DNA from: a virus
Reading direction: 5' to 3' (one strand)
Virus record (IMG/VR): IMGVR_UViG_3300021468_000001
Location: 1 to 64,000 of that record
Length of the DNA stretch: 64,000 nucleotides
Shown here: positions 4,055 through 39,237 of the stretch, one piece after another
Layout: the number at the start of each line of letters is the position of its first letter
How positions within the stretch are numbered: the first letter of the stretch is position 1
Made by a program: the position numbers and the translations under genes
Notes under the pieces: model-generated
The model's input: the letters and a program-made list of their open reading frames with translations, nothing else
Database searches by the model: none
What the model was told of the DNA's origin: nothing

Positions 4055-5047
4055 TTAGCATCTATTACCTCCTCTTTTCGCAAATGGGAGCGGAGGTGCA
4101 GTTGTTGCAACCCTCCATCTCGCAAACTTTACCGTTTCAGGATTCAATTCGATTCCGATAAAATGACGCCCGAGGCGCTTTGCGACCGCAGCCACCGTTC
4201 CAGATCCGATGAATGGATCAAGCACGACTCCACCCGGTGGGGATCCTGCAAGAATTGCAGGCTCAACGAGTTTTTCCGGGAATGCCGTAAGATGTAAGCT
4301 AAAAGATTTTGCCGGAGGTATCGTCCAAACATCTCCTGGGTTCTTGCCTTTCTGCCCCGGCTTTTCGCCAATCGGGACTCCACCACTATCATGCCGTTCT
4401 TTTTCTGCGGAACTTGCTTTTGCCCCAACAAGTTTTGCTCCCCGCCTTTTGCTCTTTGCCTCACGAACACGATAATTGAATTTTGCAGGCCCAGTTTTAT
4501 GAGGTACGCGGATGGCGTCCAGGTCGAAATAATATCGAGGATTCTTAGCGAAAAGAATAAATGGTTCCCAGGTTACTGCGAGACGGTCTCGTACTGATTC
4601 CGGTATTGGATTGGGTTTTCTCCATACAATCCAATTCCGCAAAGTCCATCCTAGGCGGTCCACCATCGCAATTGAGAAACGTTGTGGAATTTGTAAAAGA
4701 CACTTTGGCTGATGCTTGCGAATCCTTGCTTTTGGCGGATTGTCGGGATGGTAGTCTTCGTTCGCCCACGATCTTGATATTCCCTTCCCGCCACCAGAAG
4801 CATACGTATCGCCAATATTGACCCAGCAAGTACCGGAGTCTTTTAACGCCCTCCTAACTTCGGCAAAGATTTCGATTAGTCGATCAATATACTCACCAAT
4901 CGATCCTTCAAGCCCTAATTGCCCATCCACTCCGTAGTCGCGCTGCGAAAAATACGGCGGTGACGTGATTACGCAATCAACGCTTTCACTAGGAACCTGC
5001 TCCATGATCTCTAACGCATCGCCCTGATAAATTGTGTCCAGTTCCAT
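4055..5047 (-). CDS. DNA methyltransferase, N4/N6 family (beta class)
   Basis: TSPPY catalytic motif N-terminal, VLDPFIGSGT SAM-binding motif C-terminal. Confidence 0.95.
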   Translation of the reverse strand: MELDTIYQGDALEIMEQVPSESVDCVITSPPYFSQRDYGVDGQLGLEGSIGEYIDRLIEIFAEVRRALKDSGTCWVNIGDTYASGGGKGISRSWANEDYHPDNPPKARIRKHQPKCLLQIPQRFSIAMVDRLGWTLRNWIVWRKPNPIPESVRDRLAVTWEPFILFAKNPRYYFDLDAIRVPHKTGPAKFNYRVREAKSKRRGAKLVGAKASSAEKERHDSGGVPIGEKPGQKGKNPGDVWTIPPAKSFSLHLTAFPEKLVEPAILAGSPPGGVVLDPFIGSGTVAAVAKRLGRHFIGIELNPETVKFARWRVATTAPPLPFAKRGGNRC

Positions 5048-5066
5048 AATTCATTCCTCTCAATTC

Positions 5067-5098
5067 GGGTAGGGGCGGCTGCTTAACCGCCCCCACCC
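5067..5098 (-). promoter_or_regulatory. 14-bp GC-rich hairpin upstream of the methylase RBS
   Basis: GGGUGGGGGCGGUU-AAGC-AGCCGCCCCUACCC; no U-tract, so more likely a stabilising or processing hairpin than a terminator. Confidence 0.5.
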
Positions 5099-5993
5099 TG
5101 CGCGCCGGTGGGGAGGCCATCCACCGACGAACTTACTATCGGTACTAGAAATAAAAACTTCTTCTGCTTTACAGCAATCTTGGCAATTCGCTTTGCGATA
5201 ACGCCCCCAACCTTACAATACTCATTTACAAGAGTTGCTACCACTTTCTCAACCGATTTTTCAGACACTTTCAAACTCGCAACGCATTCTCCCTCGCGTT
5301 TTATCCTTATATTTATAGCCGCATACCACTTCTCGATCTCTATTTCCCACCGAACACCAGACAATCCTTCTTTCAATCTTCGTCCTCCCCATACAGCGTT
5401 GATAAGTGGAACTTCACATCCTCAAGCATTCTATCCGCCAAAAAATCCGAAGGCGAAACCCAACTTCCTTCATTCTTCTTTCTCTGCTGGTTGTTCGCTC
5501 GCCATTCTCTTGCAAGGTCGCAATGGCAAATTGAAAAAGCCTTCGGTGCAATCCTATGCGCGAGTTCATTGGCGGCATCTCTTGTGTCCTTGCCAATCGC
5601 AAAAAGATTCGATGGAGCACTTAGCGCAACGATGAACACAAAGTTTTCAAATTCAAATACTGCAATTTTGAACTGGCCTCTTCTTGAACATGCAGGACAT
5701 TGTACACTGATCCAATCTACCTTTGATGAAACAACATTCGGCTGCATTTACTGGCAACCTCCTATCAGAAAGAGAAAGAAGCAGAGACAAATAAAGGCGA
5801 ACGGCAGCATGATTATAAAAGTAAGCCAAAGAACCCCATGAGCTGCGAGAGGCACGCGGTCCTCAAACTGGACGGGCTCGTAGTAACGTTCACCTCGCGA
5901 CCAATGCCGTCGTGGACGCTTCGAGTATCTCGGTCTTTCTCTTTCTGATCGTAACCGCCTCGGGTAAGATCGCCTTGGATAATTTCGTCTCAC
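5083..5993 (-). other. Three hypothetical CDSs (5083..5376; 5373..5747 with CxxC; 5748..5993 Arg-rich with C-terminal TM helix)
   Basis: Coupled starts and stops, RBSs. Confidence 0.7.
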
Positions 5994-17445: not shown

Positions 17446-19179
17446 ATATTGCCAATTGCGCGGACGCGGCGATTTCCTCAATAAGACAGTCTGCGCGATA
17501 CTCCATCTGCATCCAGTAGTAGTAACAACCCCGCCCGCGACACTGGCGATATTCGCCGCTCTCTGGGCAAGTGATGTATTCGCGCCCGCACGGAGCATTA
17601 GCCGCACCCTGCTGGGCTCCACGATAGTATTGCCCCAGCGTCAACACTATCTGCATATATCTCGCGTAGTGCCGAATCACGGGCAGGTCGTCCGGGTCAT
17701 AATAATTTGTCTCTTTCCAATTCCATCCGCTGTGATGCCACTCCGTTTCCACGCCCAACCTGTCTACGGCCGCCGCCGTTACCCGACGGCGACGCCCGCG
17801 CACGCGCACGGTCCCGCATCGCCGGGCCACTTCTGCGGCAGTCAGCAAGCCGCGCGCGCTCGCATCTGCCGCACGCCGACTCCGCCGCGCTCCGCATTTC
17901 GTCAACATCACTCGGCCTCCTTCAATATCACAAGGTCGCATATCCGAAGCCAGTCGGGCTCGCTTACGATTGTTGATCGTGAGCCATCCCGCGACCAATC
18001 GCTTACGCTAAAAATGCCAGTTTCCAACAATGGGACTACCTTACTATCCCAAAACCTTCGCTCCTGAAGACGTCGGTTTTTCGCGGCGCGCAACTTGATG
18101 ACTACCTCATCCCCGCGAATCTGCCCGCCCGTTACTAAGGCTATAATTCTACGGGCTGCATCAACGCTCATTGAGAAACTTTCGGACATCTCTCGGCCTC
18201 CTCCAACTTATACTGGGCGACGTCCTCGAACAGAAGCGACCACACGTCCAGAAGCAACTGCTTGTTGTCGCCTTCCAATACTCGCCTTGCGCCGTCGCCC
18301 CAGTCCATGAACACGTATTCGACCCGGTGAACGTGGAGCGCGGCATCTGTGTAAAACCGGAACTCGTCGCTCGGCCCGCCCCAAGATATTTGGTAGCAGA
18401 AGTATCCCTCGTCCTGTCCGTCGAACGTGCCCGCCAACACGTAGTCGAAGCACAGGCCGTGCTCGTAAATGGCTTCTTCGGGATGTTCTCCATACTCCGC
18501 GACCATTGCGTCACGCTCCTTTTCCGAAAGATCGTCGGTTGCAGCGCGATAGAGCAGCCGGAGCTCTTCTATCTCGTCCGCCAAACTTGCCTCGATTCTT
18601 TCCTCACACGTCAACATTACTCGGCCTCCTTAAAGCAGGCGGCCTCGACCGCGTATCCAACCCCGTCGCTGCCATCCAGTATTCTGGTGTGATACTCTGC
18701 GGCGATTTCTCTTGGCAGGAGGCGCGCTACGCTTCCAACAATTCGGTATAGCCGCTCGGCTACTTCGAGCACGTCGTCGCTTGCGTCGCCTTTCACGTGG
18801 TTAGCAACGTTTCCGAGCGCTTCCATTGCGAGGCAGGCGTCTTCAGCGACACACTCTGCGATTCTTTTTACCATCCTTCCTATCTGCATTACTCGGCCTC
18901 CTCTACATGTTCAAAGATAAGCATCCGCATCTTCCCAAGCGCTAGAGATATCACACCGAATGCCTGGTTTAGAAGCTTCCCGAGTTCTTTCCTTTCTTCC
19001 TCTGTTCCGTTAATCCAGGCGTCCTCTGCTTCAAGTGCCATAGCCATCGCTGCGTCAACTGCGGCCTTTATTTGGTGAAGTGCCCCGCTCAACATCTTAT
19101 GATTGCTAGCCCTTGTAGAAGCTACTTGAACTCCATTTAACGCCTTCCGCGCCTCCTCAAGCCCCATGTGCTGACCCTC

Positions 19180-19428
19180 TCAGAGCAAAAACCTATAGTA
19201 ACCGCGCCCCACGCGCACGCAACGCCCAGCTTTCCGTAGGCTCTGTATCCCCCTGTGAAAGGCACGACGTGTAGTGTCCGAGTCTACTATCCCTTTCCGC
19301 TCCCGGTAGTCCCGCGTTATCCTGAATACTTGCGTTGCTGACAGCGCATAGCCCAAGTTGATTACGTGATACAGCCTTGCTTCATCGAGCGCCTTGAGTA
19401 TGCTATCCGCCCACGATTCTTTTAACAT
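19180..19428 (-). CDS. Probable winged-helix DNA-binding protein
   Basis: SLRKAGRCVRVGRGYYRF wing pattern. Confidence 0.55.
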   Translation of the reverse strand: MLKESWADSILKALDEARLYHVINLGYALSATQVFRITRDYRERKGIVDSDTTRRAFHRGIQSLRKAGRCVRVGRGYYRFLL

Positions 19429-20268
19429 TGCAGGACCTCCCACCTTGTTCCGGAGTGCATTATGCGATCCGCCAATTGCCGCTCTACCATTTCACTAGCA
19501 CGGCTTTACTATCTTTTCCACGCATCGAAAGCCTCTTGTTCCGCAATATACCATTCGTCCCCGCGGAAGTAAACCTTTCCGCCCCAACGAGCAACACGCA
19601 GTACTCCTACATGTTCTCGCGAGTCGCCTTCCACCCAAAAAGATCCTCTTACCAGGTTATCTTTTATATCCTCCGTTATCCTAAATTTGACAATCCGTTT
19701 CGGCTCTCCAAGTAAAGCAGTCATCTCACTTTCTGCGTTGGCTATTTCCGCAAAAGCAGAATCTATAAGGCGTGCTAGCCTTCGTGAGTCTCCTTCTACT
19801 TTGTCAGCTTCATTAAGCGCAACGCACGCGCGCTCAAGAAACTCAAGCGCCCGAAGCGCTCTCCATTCTGTTTCGGACTGGGCGCAATCAATATGATTCC
19901 TTCCTCGCATTGCGAGATCTCCTACTGCATCCACGCAGGCACGAATACTCGCTCCGGGTCAAGCCCCAAAGCGCGGATATACTTGTGTCCCGCTTTCGTG
20001 GCGTAAACTATGCCGTTCGGTGTCGCCGGGACAAGGTCGAAAACGGCTACAGGGCAGCACTTCTGCGGCGTGATAATCTCTGCGACTCCCACTTTAGCGC
20101 GCCCATCACGGTAGCCCGTGCCCTCGTTCGCATCGTAGAGCACGTAGCGCTTCCTGTCCACCTCGAACCCGACAAACGGGTTGAAAGCGTCCGCAGGCAA
20201 CGCCTGCATAGCCTCTCCAACACTCGCATCACAAGACCATCCCATTGTGTGGCCTCCTCAAATTGCGC

Positions 20269-20745
20269 TTAGTGGTGCAGGTCCACTAAAACCGCAAACG
20301 CATTCCCGACATGCGCCTCCACTTCGCGGCCATCGAGCACCCAGTACCAGGGCTGCATCAGGTCACAGCCTTCATCTACGCTACCCATTTCTGACCTTAG
20401 ATACTTTGCGATTTCCTTATTCAGCGGCAGCACATCATCAGGATACTCACCGTCTTTGAAGCCATCTCGCTTTTCTATAGGCGGAGATATTTCAGGATAC
20501 TCTTCAGCCTCAGAAGTAGCCTCATCCCGCCGGAATTTCCAATACCGCTCGGCGCCCAGCGATATTGCTTTTAATATCCCTGAGTATCCGCCGCCGATTC
20601 GGAACCAGTCGTAGAGCGGCCACACGAAGAGTCCGGGTTTCGCCCCCACGCCTTCCTCTGCCAACTTACCCCTAACAAGATCTTTCGCTTCCTCTTCAGA
20701 AGAAGCCATGCTCTTCGGAACGATTACCACTGCCATCATGTGCAT
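20269..20745 (-). CDS. Phage hypothetical protein
   Basis: YDWFRIGGGYSG motif, ends LVDLHH; GGAGG RBS. Confidence 0.75.
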   Translation of the reverse strand: MHMMAVVIVPKSMASSEEEAKDLVRGKLAEEGVGAKPGLFVWPLYDWFRIGGGYSGILKAISLGAERYWKFRRDEATSEAEEYPEISPPIEKRDGFKDGEYPDDVLPLNKEIAKYLRSEMGSVDEGCDLMQPWYWVLDGREVEAHVGNAFAVLVDLHH

Positions 20746-20757
20746 CTTCAGGCCTCC

Positions 20758-20796
20758 AAAAAAAAGCGAGCCTCACAACTCGTCGTTTCCGGCTCG
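20758..20796 (-). terminator. Intrinsic terminator or attenuator
   Basis: CGAGCC...GGCUCG followed by U8, immediately before the RBS of 20269..20745. Confidence 0.65.
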
Positions 20797-20802
20797 TAAA
20801 GC

Positions 20803-20902
20803 GGTGCAAGGGCCAAGTAGGGGCACGCGCGCCTCCTTGATGTACCGCGGACCCCTTCAGCCGAGCGAAGGCGAGACTCGACTTCAGACTCGGCCCTGCA
20901 CC
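20803..20902 (-). ncRNA. Three-way-junction structured RNA with complementary loops
   Basis: P1 GGUGCAGGGCCGAGU/ACUUGGCCCUUGCACC, P2 AGUCGAG/CUCGGCU, P3 AGGGGUCCGCG/CGCGUGCCCCU; each stem has a G-U pair only in minus orientation. Confidence 0.65.
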
Positions 20903-20930
20903 AGCGCAAGAAGGAGCAGGACAATCAATA

Positions 20931-20959
20931 ACTTTATCATTCCTGCACTTCCTTTTCAA
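20931..20959 (-). promoter_or_regulatory. Sigma70-type promoter upstream of the structured RNA
   Basis: TTGAAA-17 nt-TAAAGT with TGn extended -10. Confidence 0.55.
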
Positions 20960-21566
20960 CTTCAGGCGGCTGAACGACCATGTAGTTTTGAGTCTGTGCG
21001 ATAGGCGACTCGACATTCCCCTCGCCGAGCGCTTTTCGCAATCCCTCGTAAAGCGCCGCGATAAAGGCCGTTGATTCGTTGATGTTCCTGGCGAGCACTT
21101 TCAGGTCCCTTGTCTCGTAGAAGTCACCTTCGTCATAGACGCGCGCTAAAATACCGTGCGCCTTGCAAATATCCAGCATCCGCACGACAAGAAGGTGCGC
21201 CTTCAAAAACTCTTCTGCGTATTGCGTTTTCGTGAAGTGGCCTCCACGCCACCGCTCTGACTTCCCAAGCCGCCCGAGTATGATGGTGAAACTTTCGCAA
21301 CCAGGCCCGACGTTTACCCTGAGTATGAGCCCGTTCGCATACCCGCAGTAAAGGCTCCTGTCACTGGGGAAGTCGTCCGATATCTTCATCATTTTGGCGA
21401 GTTCAAATTCATCTCTGTCTCCGCTTTCTGTCGCTACTACCGAGCGAACTAGCCCTACCGCGCTCACGGGAAGGCCCAGAATCTCTTGCCGAATGGCATT
21501 CAGCTTGCGTTCGAGCACAGCCTTGGGACCGTCGAACGCAAAGCCGTAATGGATTGTGAGTCCCAT
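20937..21566 (-). CDS. Phage hypothetical protein
   Basis: MGLTIHY...FTKTQYA...AH...DEGDFYETRD; RBS. Confidence 0.8.
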   Translation of the reverse strand: MGLTIHYGFAFDGPKAVLERKLNAIRQEILGLPVSAVGLVRSVVATESGDRDEFELAKMMKISDDFPSDRSLYCGYANGLILRVNVGPGCESFTIILGRLGKSERWRGGHFTKTQYAEEFLKAHLLVVRMLDICKAHGILARVYDEGDFYETRDLKVLARNINESTAFIAALYEGLRKALGEGNVESPIAQTQNYMVVQPPEVEKEVQE

Positions 21567-24500
21567 CTTCAATCCTCCTCACTCATTTTCTGCAGCGCAT
21601 CGTTCGCCGCTTTCGCAAGTAACAACCACCCGCCTAGCCGCATCTTTCGCGCAACGTCAACCGCGCTGCTTGCATACTGCCTCCCGCGGCGGATGTTACC
21701 ATCTTCCAGGCAACAAATCACGAGCCGTAAGTACTGCTTCAACATTTCAACTGCTTCTCCCTTCGACATGCCTGCCCCTCCAAAACAGCCCTCCGGGCTT
21801 GTCGAATACGAGCGCGCAACTCTAAAACTACATCACCGCCAAACTCTGTTGAGATTGAAGATAGCAGCCTTGAAGCACGCTCAATCATTCCCGGGTTGCC
21901 CGTAGTAACCGCGGCTTCGAGAACCTCAAGTACTTCACGCTGCCTATTCCTGACAACCTCAACTTGCCTGCGAAGCGTCGAAGTCTCCGCCATCCCATCT
22001 ACTGCCTCAATAAACCGCTCGCAAAACGAAAGGAAGTCGCAGTCGAGGCCCGCGACGATGTAAAGATTACGCAGTGCGTCTATTCGAAGTCCACGTTGCG
22101 CTATCGCCCCTCTTCGTTTTTGCTTTCGCTCCGGGTTGAACCGTATCATCATAGCCTCCTTTTATCCATATTGCCGTAGTAATCTGAGACCCGAACTCTT
22201 GCTCCAGTGCCGCGACTATTCCCCAATTTGCAGGCAATCCCAGTCGCTTGAGCCCGCGCTTCACGCGCCTGCTCCACTGCGCTGCTTTACCGCGACACTT
22301 GTTCAACTCAATCTTTATCTGATGTTTGCTTATCATCGTTCTATCCTTTCGACTCGCCCCGTCGTGAAGTCTGTCAACTTTAAGCCCGGGCCTTCCTGCT
22401 CCACCTTGATCTCCGCTTTCCACCACATTGGCGTCTGCAGTCCAATCACGACTCCCCAGCGCCGCTCCTTCCGAACCACCAAGGCAACCCCCCCCTGCTC
22501 CGCCATCTTGATAGCCCAGGCCAAAGCACCGCGTAAACTCCACCACTTCCGCATCTTTACGCCTGCACCCTCTAGCCTCGCATTCATGAAGATTCTCCCA
22601 AAGGAGGCCGTTACGTTGCGGCTCGTCCACCGCTCAGTCCAGCTCGGCAAGCTGCGTGCCTACTGTATCCGTCCCATCGGGCTCAGTCGCATGAAACAAC
22701 ACGCCGTTGTCAATCCACCACACGAAGCCGTGATAGTCGTCCATCTTTTCGCCAGACAGCAGGCATTTCCAGCAAGCCTCACAGACCTGCAATTCGCAGC
22801 CGCAGTAGCCTGCTTTCATCTCTTTCTCTGCATCCTTACCGCAAAAGACGCAGTCCATCTCAAACCTCCTTATAAGGCCGCATCCTCCAGGCATCTTGCG
22901 ATGAATCGGAAAACGTCCACTAATATAGTGAGACGCCACACGTCAGGCTCACGCCCGAAGACCATTCTCGCCAACTCCTTCTTGCTTGGCCCGCGGTGAA
23001 AGCACCAGCGGAATTTTATCACCCGGACTACTCTCCCCTCGCGCCTCCACAGGTAGTAATCTGCGTTCATTACGCCTAGCGGCACCCGCATTTGATACCA
23101 CTTCTCGCCGTCCACTGTTACTTGCCTTGCATTCATCACTCGGCCTCCCTATAGCAGCTCAACACGCCAATTGGCTTTCCAGTTGCTTAACCTGCCTCAC
23201 GCTCCACTTTTCAAACTCGCTGCTGAACCGTCCCGGTGTGCTCCACCTTCCGCGGTGCGAGCCTTCACGCCCGAGACCCCTTCGTTCTAATTCCGCCCAC
23301 GTCCACATACGCGGCGCGCTGCGTTTCCAGGCGCTCCTATCTACTACCGCTAACTGCCGCGTTATCGGCTCCCGCAAGTGGCCAGAGAATCGGAAGCCTG
23401 CGAATGCTCCGTTCATGCGCAGCGACACGTAAAATGACTCCGTTGTCTTCGCGCTGCTTACATACAGGTCTTTCGCGTTGCAGCCCCATCTGGCCAATAT
23501 CAGAAGCACGCACGCCGCGTCGCGCGCATACGTATCCTCTCCCGCTACTAGTCGCCGCAATGCGCAGCGTATGTTGCCTTTCTCTTTCTTCCAGAGCGGG
23601 TCCAACTCCGTCCTTTCCCAGGCCTCCCGCACCAGTTTACGAGCAATGCGCGCCGCCTTGCGCCAAACCTGCCGCCCTAATTCGTCACTCATCTGTCGCT
23701 GCCTCCTTCAGCGGCTTGATAAAAACTCCAATTCATAAGCAATCCTTGGCGCTGGCGCTATCTTCACACGAACGCCGTTCACGGTCTGAACAGGCTCTCC
23801 GCGCCGCGTCGTCCAGCCCACAAAATCAAGCCCGGCCCTCTCAACCGCGCCCTTGAGTTTACGGCAAAACCGCTGCCGGCTTTCCTCAACCCGCTTCTTC
23901 AACAATGACAATTTATACTCCAGATCATCTGCCCGTGAAGCCCTCGAAGTCTCCATCTCCACTACATCAATCACATGTTGAGAGTCGCCGTCTATCACCC
24001 AAACAACAAACGGCCTCCCCGTCTTGCTTTTCTCGGACGCTCGCACATAGGCTGTGTATCCAAGTCGCTCCAACGCCGCAGCCACACCTTCTGCCTCTTC
24101 CCTTGTTCGCATTGCATGGAACACCGCAAACTTTTCCGCCTCCGTCTTGCGCTTCATTATATCCTCCCTATATCGCTACGATTATTTCTCTGCGCTCAAC
24201 ACAAGGCCGCTTCTCAAGCGCGATCATCGCACGCTCCCAATTTCTCCACTTCTCCTCGTAGGCCTCCTCCGCCTCACGCCGCGCCCTGTAAACCGTCTTG
24301 CCGCCGTCGTGACTCCACACTACGCCCGGCGGCACGCCTTCGCCGCACCAGACTTTCCCAACGCGCTCCCACCGCGGCCCCATCCCGTTCCGAAACCTGC
24401 TCATTGCTCGCCCCCTCTAAAATTTCCCCCTCCACGCAAACGGGCCTATTACCAATGTTCCTCCTTCGTCCTCTGACCGAGCAGGCACCATCACCGCCTT

Positions 24501-25825: not shown

Positions 25826-25868
25826 AAAAAAAAGAGCGCGGGGCGGGGCGCCCGCCGCCCACGCCCGC
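25826..25868 (-). terminator. Intrinsic terminator
   Basis: GC-rich hairpin followed by U8 downstream of 25975..26289. Confidence 0.6.
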
Positions 25869-26966: not shown

Positions 26967-27389
26967 GTGGGGCGAAAGGTAAGGGGGTTAGGGCGCGAGG
27001 TAGTTGAGGCGGTGATAGGGGGGATAGAGCGCGGGATAGAGGTAGGGGACATGGTACAGTTAGCGGTGCTGTGGGGCGAGTTATGGGAGGCGGAGGTAAG
27101 GAGCATGGGGGCAGTGAGGGCGCGGATAGGGGAGGTGAGGGAGCGGTTGGAAGGGGAGGTAGTAAAGCGGTTAGGGGAGGCAGAAGAGGTAAAAGGGAGG
27201 ATGTTAGAGGGGTGTGGGCGGATGATACAGGTGATGGCAGCGCGGCGGTATTTGATGGCGGAGCGTGCTGAGGCAGTAGAGCGTGGCGAGTGGAGGGCGG
27301 ATGGGCGGATAAAGGAGTGGCGCAAGATAGTGGGGGAGGTAGGGCGGTGCGCGAAGAAGAAGAATGGGGGCAAGGCAAGTGACGAATGA
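26967..27389 (+). CDS. Putative terminase small subunit
   Basis: Directly upstream of and overlapping the large subunit, helical, GGAGG RBS; function by position only. Confidence 0.5.
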   Translation: MGRKVRGLGREVVEAVIGGIERGIEVGDMVQLAVLWGELWEAEVRSMGAVRARIGEVRERLEGEVVKRLGEAEEVKGRMLEGCGRMIQVMAARRYLMAERAEAVERGEWRADGRIKEWRKIVGEVGRCAKKKNGGKASDE

Positions 27390-30192
27390 GGACAAGTTAC
27401 GGCGATTGGTAGGGTATCGGCCGGAGAGCAAGGAAGAGTTGTGGTTGTACTACAAAGCGGCGTTTGGGATGGGGCTGGTGCGAGAAAGTGTCTGTGAGGC
27501 ACACAGTTCGCAATTAGATTTTGCGTGGGAGATGGTGCGAGGCGGTGCGGGGAACATAATAGCGCTGGCATGTCGGCATGGTGGGAAGACAAGCACGGCA
27601 GCGGCAAGTACGTTGGTGCGGGCAGTTACGCAGCCTGATCTTGATGGATTTGTAATGAGCGGATGTGTTGCACCGTGGCAATTTTTGGTAGTGCAGGAAG
27701 GTGGGATGGTGTATTGCAAGCCGCTTGGTTGGGCAAAGGCAGGTGACGTGGTATGGACAAAAGAGGGATGGCGGAAGGTTAAAGCAGTAATGGTAAAGCC
27801 TGGGATAGAGGAGTTTTCGCGGCTTCGGACCGCGATAGGAGATATAACGACGACCGGCGACCATCTAATATACATAAAGGATGCAATAGATGGGGACCGG
27901 AAGTGGGTTCCTGCGAAGGATATAGGGCGTTTGCAGGTGCCGCTAGTCCCGACGCGAGGGGCTGACGGCTCGAGATTGTTACCATCGGATGAAAACTCCA
28001 CGCTCGATCCATATCTGGCTGGAGTGATGGCAGGTCTTCCGGTAGACAAAAAGAGAAGTACAAGCGAAATGCTTTATGTCAGGTGGGGGTGGCGGGCTCC
28101 TGTGGGCATGAAGAGCAAAAAGGGATTGGCTTGGCGAGCTGAGCGCGAGAAGGCATCATGCTTGGGGGCACTAGGGTATGCGGCAAAGATACTGAAAGGC
28201 GTGGGGGTCTATCTTCACATATATGAATGTAGTGGCGAGAAGGAAGGGTCTTTTAGCACAACTGTACCGGTAGCTTCGATTCCTCGAGCGTATCTCGAAC
28301 AGGACATTCGTTGGTATTGGCGGTACGATCGCGAGTGGCGGAGGCGCTTTCTGGAAGCATTTTTTGCGGTCGCATTTCGGAAAACTTCGTATGGGAAGGC
28401 GGGATATTTTCGGAGAAATGCTGGGGATGCTATATATTTTAGGGCAAGAGGATTGCCGCAAATCCCGGATCTTGTGAACGAACCTCTTTGGCGGCAGGAG
28501 ATTGCTAAGGCAAGCATAATCCTTTTGCTGAGTTTGGACGTTGCCGAGTTGTGGATGATCCCTACATGGCCGAAGTTCCCAACATGGATGCCATATAGTA
28601 GTCAGTTTCCTGCATTGGTTTGGTTTAGGCCGGGGTCCTCAATACCGATAACAGATATGCCGTTTAGGTCAGCAGTTTTCAAGGATAGCACGCTTTACAA
28701 TCCTGTTTTAATAGAACCGGCTCCTAGCGAGGTTTTTATAGGGAGGGCTGGGATAAAGGACAAGAGAAAGCGGGGCGATCCATCGGTATTTTTTGATCTT
28801 GAGATTGAGGGCGCCGACAACTTTATGATTCTACCTGGTTGCATCGTTCACAATTCAAAACGGCAGGCACGAAGATTTTATCAGTTTTTTGAAAAGATGT
28901 CGCGGAAGTCTTGGTTTGAAGATGATTTTGATGGTAGGCCGGAGAAGGAGGAAGTGCGATTCAAAACCGGGAGTCGTGTAGAGATTCTTGCTACTTCGGA
29001 AACGTCAGCGCGATCTCCTCATGGGAACTTAATTATTGCCGATGAAGCAGATGCAATTCCATCAGGCGTCTATGAATCGTTGAATTTTGCGGTTGACCTA
29101 ACAGACGAAATATCAGATAGGCGCGCCCTGTTCGTTATTACGTCAACGCAGCATAGGCTTGGTGGAAATATCTCGCGATTGCTCGAGAGATTAGAAGAAC
29201 AGGGATCGAAGCATACTCGCGTTTTTCGATGGTGCATGAGGGAGGTGATTGCTCCATGCCCGCGCGATGCGGTTTGTGCGAATTGCGACTTGTTCAATGA
29301 TTGTGGAGGTGTAGCAAAAGAAAAGCAAGACGGGTTTCTAACGAGAGAAAAACTGGTTTCATTGAAAGAACGACTGGTTAGTAAGGATGCGTGGGATCGC
29401 GAGATGATGCTGAAGCCGCCTCGAGCAGGCGATACCGCTTGTCCTCTTTTCAGGGATGGATTTCCTTATGTCTATCGCTTCGATGCGATGAAAACACTAC
29501 CTTCTTTTCATGGCTGGGATTTTGGAGTTTCGACGGCGATTGTGTTTGCCAATTTTGATGAGAAGAAACAGCGAGTTTTTGTCTTTGATGAGCGGCTTAT
29601 TCAGCATAAAGACCATCAGCACGTTGTTGATGTTGTGAATCGGATAGATGCGTATCACAGACTACCTAACCCGAAATCGTTTGGAGATCCGCATGGCGGG
29701 CAAGATATTCTTACATATGCACGTCTTGGGCATGTAATTTTGTCATATATGGGGCGGAGAAAACAGAGTAGACTAGATGTTCTAAACTGGTTTATGGAGT
29801 ATCGGGACGACGGCAAGCCCGGGATTGCAATACATCCGCGGTGCAAACAGCTAAGGCATGAATTGATTGTTGCTACTAGGGGTGACCTTATTCAGTATGA
29901 TCCGGTTTCAAAGAAGAGACTTGTAGTTGCAAAAGAAGGATTCCATATCCTAAATGCCCTAATATATCTTTTGGATGGGATTTATATGGGCCTTGATAGA
30001 AGCCGAGAGGTGTTGGCAAGAGAACGGAGAAAAGCGATAAATGCATCTTTGGGGACTGTTCCTCATCCTAATTGGGGAAAGGGCAAGAGAATTCATAATG
30101 AAGGTTCTCCGCCCTTTATCATCGAGCCTGGTGCCCCGCCTTCTCTTGATGGCATTGATGAAGGACTTGACCTTAATGCTGGCTTAGGTTAA
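27364..30192 (+). CDS. terL: Terminase large subunit with intein
   Basis: Walker A CRHGGKT, Walker B IIADEAD, TSTQ coupling motif, nuclease GWDFG. Confidence 0.93.
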   Translation: MGARQVTNEDKLRRLVGYRPESKEELWLYYKAAFGMGLVRESVCEAHSSQLDFAWEMVRGGAGNIIALACRHGGKTSTAAASTLVRAVTQPDLDGFVMSGCVAPWQFLVVQEGGMVYCKPLGWAKAGDVVWTKEGWRKVKAVMVKPGIEEFSRLRTAIGDITTTGDHLIYIKDAIDGDRKWVPAKDIGRLQVPLVPTRGADGSRLLPSDENSTLDPYLAGVMAGLPVDKKRSTSEMLYVRWGWRAPVGMKSKKGLAWRAEREKASCLGALGYAAKILKGVGVYLHIYECSGEKEGSFSTTVPVASIPRAYLEQDIRWYWRYDREWRRRFLEAFFAVAFRKTSYGKAGYFRRNAGDAIYFRARGLPQIPDLVNEPLWRQEIAKASIILLLSLDVAELWMIPTWPKFPTWMPYSSQFPALVWFRPGSSIPITDMPFRSAVFKDSTLYNPVLIEPAPSEVFIGRAGIKDKRKRGDPSVFFDLEIEGADNFMILPGCIVHNSKRQARRFYQFFEKMSRKSWFEDDFDGRPEKEEVRFKTGSRVEILATSETSARSPHGNLIIADEADAIPSGVYESLNFAVDLTDEISDRRALFVITSTQHRLGGNISRLLERLEEQGSKHTRVFRWCMREVIAPCPRDAVCANCDLFNDCGGVAKEKQDGFLTREKLVSLKERLVSKDAWDREMMLKPPRAGDTACPLFRDGFPYVYRFDAMKTLPSFHGWDFGVSTAIVFANFDEKKQRVFVFDERLIQHKDHQHVVDVVNRIDAYHRLPNPKSFGDPHGGQDILTYARLGHVILSYMGRRKQSRLDVLNWFMEYRDDGKPGIAIHPRCKQLRHELIVATRGDLIQYDPVSKKRLVVAKEGFHILNALIYLLDGIYMGLDRSREVLARERRKAINASLGTVPHPNWGKGKRIHNEGSPPFIIEPGAPPSLDGIDEGLDLNAGLG
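27664..28854 (+). mobile_element. Intein (397 aa) with probable degenerate LAGLIDADG endonuclease
   Basis: Starts CVAPW, block B TTGDH, PYLAGVMAG, FFDLEIEG.DNF, ends IVHN followed by Ser. Confidence 0.92.
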
Positions 30193-38058: not shown

Positions 38059-39147
38059 ATGATTCAGGTTGCTAAGGATGCTTTTATCGTAAGACCGTTT
38101 GAGGACCTTCTGAGTGTAGCAAATTTCGGTGAGGAAGTTATGGCGCAGTTTGCAAACTACACCCAGGCTATGAAAAAGGCAGACCTCACCGACAAGCTGA
38201 TTCAGCCGCTCTTTTCGGCGCGGACTATTCAGGATCTTCAAACGACATCTGCGCTTCTTGACCTAGCGCGAAAGATGGTCAAGATTAGCTGGAAGGGGCA
38301 GGGAGACCCCCTTCAGGTTCCCTATATCGACTATCTGAGTGGATCCGGTGTTTCTGAGGGAACCTCAACTGAGGGTTCTGAGGAAAAACTTTCGGTGACA
38401 ATGAAGTCGGTGGCTCTTGCCGAAAAGGCCCATTCAACGGCCTGGACGAGACATGCAGGGCGGCTGGCGCGATACTCTGTGCTGGAAGCGTCTCGTGAGG
38501 CGCTCAAAGATTGGGCAGTTCGAAAGATAGAGGCTGATATTCGTACCTCGCTTCAGACTTCGATCACTCAAATCATACGTCCGAATGATAAAGGTTCTGA
38601 TGAGGCAATGACCGCTACCGATGTTCTGGACACCGAGACGATTCGTCAGGCGCGGTGGATTCTTTGGAAGAAGAGGGCGGCCAGTTTCTCGCCTAAGGAC
38701 GTGGATACCGAGGGTAAGATGAAAAAGTCGATGGGGACGTACGTTCTCATTTGCCCGGGCGAGTTGCTTAAAGACCTCGAGGATGATACCGATTTTAAGA
38801 ATGCTCAGGAGAAAGCTGCCGACCTTGCGCGTGGATTCTCGCCGTGGGAAGGCGATATTTATCTCTATAAGGGCGTTCTTATCGTGAAGGGCGATCCGAG
38901 AATCTGGACGACTGAGACCATTTCGGCCGGGTACTCGTACAAGATGGCTCGTGCCCTAATGCTCGGGTCCGACGCTTTTGTCTTAGGCCTTGGCCAGCCG
39001 GAAGGCGAAAACTTCCTGACCGTGACACCCGAGGAAAGCGATGGTGGCCGTTTGCAGCGGCTGGTTCTGTCCATCATATACGGAGTCGGGGTTATCCGGG
39101 CGACTTCGGGTGTTTGGATTCATGCGGCGACGCAAGACCTAATCTAA
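38059..39147 (+). CDS. Major capsid protein
   Basis: 362 aa after the scaffold, strong AAGGAGG RBS, terminator downstream, GDIYLYKGV and YGVGVIR patterns. Confidence 0.88.
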   Translation: MIQVAKDAFIVRPFEDLLSVANFGEEVMAQFANYTQAMKKADLTDKLIQPLFSARTIQDLQTTSALLDLARKMVKISWKGQGDPLQVPYIDYLSGSGVSEGTSTEGSEEKLSVTMKSVALAEKAHSTAWTRHAGRLARYSVLEASREALKDWAVRKIEADIRTSLQTSITQIIRPNDKGSDEAMTATDVLDTETIRQARWILWKKRAASFSPKDVDTEGKMKKSMGTYVLICPGELLKDLEDDTDFKNAQEKAADLARGFSPWEGDIYLYKGVLIVKGDPRIWTTETISAGYSYKMARALMLGSDAFVLGLGQPEGENFLTVTPEESDGGRLQRLVLSIIYGVGVIRATSGVWIHAATQDLI

Positions 39148-39170
39148 CCGGTTAGGTCGGCCCAGAGAGC

Positions 39171-39205
39171 GAGGAGGGGAGGATTTCCTCCCCTTCTCTT
39201 TTTTT
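39171..39205 (+). terminator. Intrinsic terminator after the capsid gene
   Basis: AGGGGAGG-ATTT-CCTCCCCT followed by a T-run. Confidence 0.8.
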
Positions 39206-39208
39206 CGC

Positions 39209-39237
39209 TTGACGGCGAAGTCCCAATCTGCTATCTT
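39209..39237 (+). promoter_or_regulatory. Sigma70-type promoter, predicted leaderless transcript
   Basis: TTGACG-17 nt-TATCTT with TGn; ATG starts 7 nt after the -10 and has no RBS. Confidence 0.65.

Follow-up and report, generated by a model that had tools for sequence, protein, structure and literature searches.

A candidate structured RNA with a terminator-like 3' end and an overlapping mini-ORF in the early gene block of a hydrothermal-vent-community phage

We describe a genuine, well-delimited candidate structured RNA, which folding analysis places in a 191-nt intergenic spacer (20746-20936, minus strand) of a phage from a hydrothermal-vent community, and which belongs to no known RNA family and was found in one phage lineage. 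The virus record is 74,682 bp long (74.7 kb) and has direct terminal repeats; the DNA analysed here, hereafter the window, comprises its bases 1-64000. Three statements about the spacer are supported, in decreasing order of strength: a terminator-like site made of a hairpin and U8 stands before the next RBS; a three-way junction (3WJ) is predicted as a stable, strand-specific fold that is kept in a relative; and a hydrophobic mini-ORF, probably coupled translationally to the preceding gene, shares its 3' end with P1, the helix that closes the junction. In kind, the spacer RNA would fall among the already known phage cis-regulatory or 3'-end RNA structures.

Genome setting and architecture of the spacer

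Bases 1 to ~27,000 hold a dense block of small minus-strand genes (the leftward early block), in which neighbouring genes often overlap and start sites mostly read GGAGG(CC) ~7 nt before ATG; the spacer is one of the few real gaps in this block. Positions within the spacer (pos) are numbered along the minus strand, pos 1 being window 20936. According to the ORF list, it is preceded by a gene for a 211-aa protein (20937-21572, minus strand; TGA stop at 20939-20937) and followed by a gene for a 158-aa protein (20269-20745, minus strand), neither of which has a Pfam or PHROG match. The 211-aa protein, with 20 homologues, represents a widespread but uncharacterised conserved family with the motifs GxGCE, KTQYA, H..V...LD and DEG.YWETRD. 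The family occurs in 9 IMG/VR contigs and 88 GTDB loci, the latter mostly in Planctomycetota MAGs, a bias that hints at the host range of related phages. Protein searches with the 158-aa protein found no homologues outside its own lineage. Its start site, GGAGGCC...ATG (20743-20757, minus strand), is a copy of the phage's recurrent gene-junction motif, which in the form GGAGGCC(G/T)A..(A)ATG is repeated at many minus-strand starts (18889, 18617, 17435, 12215, 11821, 3316, 2445, 1250) and often has a U-rich run before it; the copy at the downstream gene directly follows U8. On the other strand, the ORF of the large terminase (27364-30192, 942 aa) is matched by terminase profiles only over residues ~494-887. 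Its N-terminal half is unexplained by profiles, and a weak intein-splicing match (E = 0.004) falls below the Pfam cut-off.

Every feature named in a preliminary description of this DNA was located by direct reading of the minus strand of 20746-20959. The 3WJ itself covers 100 nt (20803-20902), with identical minimum free energy (MFE) and centroid folds. Read from sequence and fold, P1 has 15 bp and one bulge (pos 35-49 with 119-134; 20902-20888 with 20818-20803), P2 has 8 bp and a 9-nt loop (pos 54-61 with 71-78; 20883-20859), and P3 has 12 bp and two bulges (pos 81-118; 20856-20819). CUGA (pos 50-53) joins P1 to P2 and GA (pos 79-80) joins P2 to P3, which adjoins the 3' arm of P1 directly, giving junction strands of 4, 2 and 0 nt. 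In the centroid fold of the spacer, the 5' 34 nt are unpaired.

Folded alone, the 3WJ reaches -53.0 kcal/mol (z = -3.55), a value that none of 200 shuffles equalled. The antisense strand folds 8.8 kcal/mol worse (-44.2 kcal/mol, z = -2.5), as is expected when G.U pairs matter. Selection bias has to be allowed for in judging these values, since the z-score of the entire 191-nt spacer is only -1.36. When MFE was computed for 100-nt intervals along the two strands of the 64 kb, the exact 3WJ interval would fall ~3.1 SD below the GC-regressed mean; it is not unique in this, as roughly ten places are as stable once GC content is taken into account, and some of these lie inside genes. The complementarity of the two apical loops, which had been pointed out earlier, is real: the P2 loop segment CGCCUUC (20867-20873, minus strand), which is anti-SD-like, matches GGAGGCG in the P3 loop (20836-20830) over seven pairs, one of them G.U. 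Such a 7-pair match is expected in 3-4% of random loop pairs (chance p 0.03-0.04).

A 6-nt linker separates the 3WJ from a second hairpin, CGAGCC...GGCUCG, followed by C and U8 (20758-20796, minus strand; sequence, fold and T-run scan). The hairpin occupies pos 141-170 and has an 18-nt loop on a GC-rich stem of only 6 bp; U8 (20765-20758) is followed by GGAGG, 7 nt and the ATG at 20745. This is the sequence layout of an intrinsic terminator, and the site, already singled out in the preliminary description, is a credible predicted one. In the window the hairpin abuts the U-tract at -13.0 kcal/mol, and an out-of-register hairpin that pairs GCUUUACGA with UUGUGAGGC reaches -13.3 kcal/mol and ends 4 nt before the U-tract; two registers so near in energy could make termination partial. 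The U8 says more than the loop match or the promoter-like site described below, as sense-strand T8 runs occur at two places only in the leftward early block (20758-20765 and 25826-25833), each preceded by a GC-rich hairpin. The other of these hairpin-T8 sites (25826-25853, minus strand) ends a small first transcription unit beside the CG-rich genome-end region.

At the other end of the spacer, inside the last codons of the upstream gene, a consensus scan returned the promoter-like site TTGAAA-17-TGnTAAAGT (20931-20959, minus strand), with TTGAAA at 20959-20954, a 17-nt spacing and an extended -10 (20936-20931); 9 of the 12 consensus positions agree. Sites of this quality turn up at the chance rate: 6 kb contain 5, where 3.1 ± 1.8 are expected, and 19.5 kb contain 14, where the expectation is 11.3 ± 4.0. 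The hexamers and spacing of the promoter that had been claimed for the element are therefore present, but the match is no better than chance.

The preliminary description was right in the elements that it listed, but it did not include an 18-codon ORF that overlaps them. Mini-ORF A (20884-20940, minus strand; 18 codons and a stop, peptide MIKLLIVLLLLALVQGRV), identified from its sequence and silent-change pattern, begins at an ATG at 20940 that overlaps the upstream stop codon (ATGA), in an unstructured, AU-rich start region. Its last five codons are the 5' arm of P1, and its UGA stop coincides with the CUGA junction. The peptide consists of M, one basic residue near the N-terminus and then an uninterrupted hydrophobic run, with Leu at 7 of the 18 codons. 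The sequence also suggests a possible mini-ORF B of 17 codons (20773-20838, minus strand), with the SD AAGGAGG (20838-20832) in the P3 loop, GUG 5 nt on in the P3 stem (20826-20824, pos 111) and the stop in the terminator loop.

Comparison with a relative and search for further copies

Nothing similar was found by blastn among deposited phages. Protein searches revealed one close lineage, with proteins 90% (P0002) and 88% (P0004) identical to the flanking ones, and a metagenome scan returned one contig (L012, 2497 nt) that carries the upstream gene, the spacer and the downstream gene in the same order. Ten Logan runs (2018 hydrothermal-vent and sediment metagenomes), none of them an RNA run, contain the stretch. 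The four that were compared added no new substitution, leaving only one independent relative lineage: run X10 has the L012 haplotype and run X9 an intermediate one. The sediment run X8 yielded a 151-nt contig (depth 3.5) that is window-like over pos 18-139 but has 26 unrelated bases where the terminator would begin; the break, at window 20798 (pos 139/140), reflects either an error of assembly or yet another arrangement of the element, the third.

The flanking genes share 87-88% DNA identity with L012, with differences at 32 of 149 fourfold-degenerate sites (21%). For the 3WJ the identity is 96%, pos 95-154 are invariant, and the stretch between the two mini-ORFs (pos 54-110) is nearly invariant without a coding reason. 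Identity along L012 is patchy, several coding stretches reaching 96-100% (among them the first 55 nt of the downstream gene), so the conservation of the 3WJ alone is not decisive; judging by the sequences, its 96% identity could come in part from recent exchange. Against window 19001-22743, L012 has ~560 nt and ~980 nt of neighbouring small genes absent or replaced. On this comparison, the early region around the spacer is a cassette-like mosaic with whole-gene insertions or replacements between the two phages.

The spacers differ by 14 substitutions and one 2-nt indel in the U-run. Four substitutions hit paired positions of the structural model (A40G, A81G, U86C and C169U), and a fifth, C33U, affects one of two extra P1 pairs that RNAalifold predicts. 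Pairing survives each of the five, which are all one-sided (p ~0.02); the A81-U118 pair of P3, for instance, becomes G.U. None of 41 pairs is broken by the 14 substitutions (p = 0.015; p = 0.025 given four changes at paired positions). L012 folds into the same 3WJ at -57 kcal/mol, and the RNAalifold consensus is again the same, with two more P1 pairs. In the covariation check that had been suggested for the element, the changes at paired positions all preserve pairing, but two-sided changes were seen in none of the 48 predicted pairs, with only two distinct sequences to compare; strict covariation is thus absent. Both 3WJ loops are invariant, so covariation speaks neither for nor against the loop contact. 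In the terminator, one G-C pair becomes G.U and U8 becomes U6, the rest being kept; the energies of the two registers are -10.9 (CGAGCC/GGCUCG) and -10.7 kcal/mol (GCUUUACGA/UUGUGAGGC). The promoter-like hexamers and TG are unchanged, with differences at two bases of the spacing and an adjacent 6-nt indel.

Read as codons of ORF A, four of the five changes are silent (p = 0.05). Those in the unpaired leader are silent in 4 of 4 cases (p ~0.014, from 0.346^4), and the fifth replaces Q by R and retains an A-U pair as G.U. In the other two minus-strand frames of the same region, the changes are mostly non-silent. Together with the ATGA start, this pattern argues for ORF A as a probable translated gene for an 18-codon hydrophobic membrane peptide. 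The 5' arm of P1 and CUGA would then double as the last codons and stop of a translated ORF, which changes how the element would work. The evidence on ORF B as a gene is suggestive only: its two changes are GAC to GAU, which is silent, and UGA to UAA, which is still a stop (p = 0.11), and as the changed positions are also terminator-loop positions, an RNA reading explains them equally well. Between ORFs A and B, one of three changes in the same frame is silent.

No longer coding sequence emerged from the spacer. Six-frame translations had no match elsewhere in the window, and no remnant of a homologue or paralogue was seen in any frame; the reading as a decayed gene was dropped. A 58-aa ORF (20748-20924) had no homologue in a search of 5.8 billion proteins; a representative library returned three multi-stretch matches only, all in long proteins, and these look like low-complexity matches. 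This ORF, a 106-aa minus-strand ORF and a 98-aa plus-strand ORF all span the 2-nt U-run indel and were rejected, as were alternative minus-strand frames of the spacer ORFs, where changes against L012 are mostly non-silent.

Further copies of the element were sought in several ways. IMG/VR was scanned with both flanking proteins and the terminase, and with three exact DNA patterns (taken from the RNA or the X8 junction), and neither approach produced one. Nine viral loci with distant homologues of the upstream gene, inspected by eye and with a covariance model of the 3WJ (R1), contain no similar element; by our own reading, three of the nine (L003, L007 and L008) have a hairpin or a spacer after the homologous gene. 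R1 likewise found no similar element in 80 of the 88 GTDB loci of upstream-gene relatives, and it met with none elsewhere in the phage, in two genomes of Planctomycetota or in a sample of 151 genomes from this phylum, where an empty answer shows little.

A cis-acting module and its alternatives

The RNA had been described as unrecognised, and the family searches bear this out. With Rfam 15 (4227 models), the whole window gave no match at gathering thresholds, and at E up to 10 the sole match in 20650-21050 was a spurious SNORD43 (18 bits against a threshold of 45). A tRNA and tmRNA search found none. The earlier judgement by eye that the fold is neither a hammerhead nor a TPP riboswitch holds as well, with no covariance-model match at E up to 10.

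Our tentative reading is that the spacer acts in cis as a compound 3'-end and attenuator module of the leftward early operon, coupled to ORF A, and is not a free-standing riboswitch. For this module we infer translation of ORF A, termination, stabilisation and a coupling between them. Ribosomes finishing the 211-aa gene would restart at the overlapping ATGA and, on ORF A, would unzip P1 at each passage, its 5' arm being the last five codons and the stop lying in the unpaired CUGA. Between passages, or on untranslated RNA, the stretch would snap into the very stable 3WJ, so that at any one moment a given RNA could have ORF A translated or the 3WJ folded, but not both. Six bases past the 3WJ, the moderate hairpin and U8 would end part of the transcripts before the next RBS. 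The 3WJ and hairpin would also form a nuclease-resistant 3' end for the upstream message, and leaky termination would dose read-through into the downstream gene array, marking an early/delayed-early boundary.

Intrinsic terminators or attenuators stand at such boundaries of phage early operons in lambda (tR1 and tL1) and T7 (the early terminator). The spacer resembles these in placing a hairpin and U-tract before the next RBS within a long same-strand early block, where partial read-through is plausible. It differs from them in having a 100-nt 3WJ and an overlapping mini-ORF ahead of the terminator, and no antitermination factor or nut/put-like element was identified. To our knowledge, almost nothing is known about gene regulation in hydrothermal-vent phages. 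If real, the module would place a structured RNA of no established class at a transcription boundary in a phage of such a community, with one arm of an RNA helix doubling as the end of a translated mini-gene and translation and folding mechanically linked. As it stands, the spacer is a well-defined candidate confined to one phage lineage and has no bearing on a long-standing question.

It is somewhat unlikely that the spacer has no RNA-level function beyond an ordinary terminator and holds one or two tiny protein genes, namely ORF A for a membrane peptide and perhaps ORF B, with the 3WJ as an incidental GC-rich fold or possibly a remnant of cassette shuffling. The share of silent changes (4 of 5 in ORF A and 2 of 2 in ORF B, against 1 of 3 in the same frame between them) fits this view, as does the start of ORF B (AAGGAGG-5-GUG), which is strong and of the kind used by real genes here. 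So do the ten or so other places of equal folding for GC, the mosaic of gene cassettes around the spacer and the X8 contig, in which the 3WJ runs on into different sequence after pos 139. Yet an incidental fold does not account for 14 changes without one broken stem pair, for a sense strand that folds better than the antisense, or for the near-invariance of pos 54-110 between the ORFs; nor do the searches in all frames, with three library matches of low-complexity appearance, lend support to genes. As to the kind of peptide, Ibs proteins are hydrophobic type I toxins of 18-19 aa, and Ibs/Sib-like systems include an overlapping antisense RNA gene. ORF A, which is likened to them by features since it is too short for a homology test, shares their length (18 aa), the basic residue near the N-terminal M and the uninterrupted hydrophobic run. 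Unlike them, it is coupled to an upstream gene, and no plus-strand promoter-like site that could serve an antisense RNA was seen in 19171-21257.

An independent sRNA of ~168 nt, transcribed from the promoter-like site in the last codons of the upstream gene and ending at the U8 terminator, is unlikely. It would be of the 3'-UTR type with an internal promoter, and would act in trans on GGAGG-type RBSs through a C/U-rich single-stranded 5' seed (CUCCUUCUUG), the 3WJ body and the RBS-like and anti-RBS-like loops. DapZ and MicL are 3'-UTR-derived sRNAs whose promoters lie inside the upstream coding region. The spacer is like them in that its candidate promoter lies across the last part of the upstream gene, the mRNA terminator would be shared and a single-stranded 5' stretch could serve as seed; it is unlike them in that this putative seed region is variable and probably coding. 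In favour of an sRNA, L012 keeps the -35, TGn and -10 with their 17-nt spacing amid differences at nearby bases, and the candidate RNA would end in a hairpin and a long run of U. The 34 nt at the 5' end are unpaired in the centroid fold, and both the P2 loop and the leader show complementarity to GGAGGCC, the start motif that recurs in this phage. This is countered by the chance frequency of such promoter-like sites and by the change of U26 to G in the centre of the seed in relatives, where the pattern of changes fits coding instead. A second copy or relative was likewise missing from the phage, from 89 loci, from the 151 sampled Planctomycetota genomes and from one further Pirellulaceae genome.

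A more ambitious idea, which we hold to be quite improbable, is a new class of phage regulatory RNA, in the form of a ~168-nt transcript or leader. Its 3WJ would display an RBS mimic (AAGGAGGCG) and the anti-RBS mimic CGCCUUC, which would pair with each other, with GGAGGCC starts or between RNAs, and so switch translation of, or read-through into, the delayed-early array in phages of uncultured vent bacteria, maybe Planctomycetota.

Very improbable is a ligand riboswitch, or a leader-peptide attenuator of the Leu-run type or, via ORF B into the terminator, of the pyrBI type, that toggles the terminator. Here the preliminary description of a riboswitch or attenuator retains its fold and a credible terminator, but loses the two-state pairing and any shared antiterminator. 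The pairing of the leader CCUUCUUG with CAAGGAGG in the P3 loop is present in the window, but in L012, X10 and X8 the natural variant U26G, silent in ORF A, turns its central pair into a G-G mismatch, and the two-state model was rejected on that ground. In favour of a switch, the 3WJ stands 6 nt before the terminator, and of the two near-isoenergetic hairpin registers only one abuts the U-tract. ORF A is rich in Leu codons (7 of 18), and with the ORF B stop in the terminator loop, a ribosome there would cover the 3' arm. We folded the window sequence and L012 with a ribosome footprint masked at the Leu run, at codons 13-14 and at the stop codon. The alternative folds differed between the two sequences and had no antiterminator in common, so ribosome position did not select between competing terminator and antiterminator helices, and most of the folds retained the terminator. 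Termination under regulation, as opposed to a constitutive kind, is thus unsupported. In trp, leu and pyrBI, attenuation depends on a leader peptide whose short ORF overlaps RNA structure upstream of a terminator. The spacer shares with them a Leu-rich short ORF over a structure and, as in pyrBI, a second ORF running into the terminator; it departs from them in that ORF A is coupled by ATGA to a preceding gene and is not at a transcript 5' end, and in having no conserved antiterminator.

For a ligand-binding version, the comparison is with TPP and purine riboswitches, in which conserved junction and loop nucleotides build the ligand pocket, and more closely with the purine type, a P1-closed three-way junction with kissing L2 and L3 loops. 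P1 closes the 3WJ here too, the hairpin loops are complementary and a terminator follows. Both classes were nonetheless rejected: the Rfam riboswitch models gave no match at E values up to 10, P2 and P3 are unequal in length, and the junction, with strands of only 4, 2 and 0 nt, falls well short of a purine pocket and leaves little room for one. Neither a ligand pocket nor a self-cleavage core can be shown in the spacer.

A self-cleaving, hammerhead-like ribozyme or a phi29-type self-assembling packaging RNA (pRNA) is scarcely credible, the likeness being architectural only (a 3WJ with CUGA at its junction, apical loops that complement each other, and a hairpin domain towards the 3' end) and no hammerhead or pRNA model matching at E up to 10. 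In a hammerhead core, CUGANGA links stems I and II, GAA links II and III, and the cleavage site where III meets I is an unpaired H; here CUGA is followed by a Watson-Crick-paired AGU, the second junction is GA and not GAA, and no unpaired base lies between P3 and P1. The phi29 pRNA is an early phage RNA of ~170 nt in which a 3WJ domain with a complementary pair of loops is joined by a short linker to a hairpin domain at the 3' end (PMC5066667). In the small terminal-protein phages that use it, the loops of one pRNA molecule pair with those of another on the portal. The layout is alike, but the spacer has no sequence or covariance-model similarity to it, and the present phage, which is about 75 kb long, has direct terminal repeats and encodes a large terminase of 942 aa, differs in genome type and is not phi29-like.

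Other structured stretches in the window

Very stable hairpins at other gene junctions of this phage fit a general use of structured mRNA junctions. One of them, where a 97-aa gene meets its neighbour (5031-5160, minus strand), is a stronger outlier than the 3WJ in the MFE scan, at -57.1 kcal/mol (z = -5.22), and consists of an 8-bp hairpin and a perfect 14-bp GC hairpin with no U-tract. In the late block, 39101-39230 (plus strand; z = -3.8) contains a 12-bp GC hairpin (GGGGAGGA...UCCUCCCC), extended by flanking pairs and followed by U7, which is a clear intrinsic terminator.
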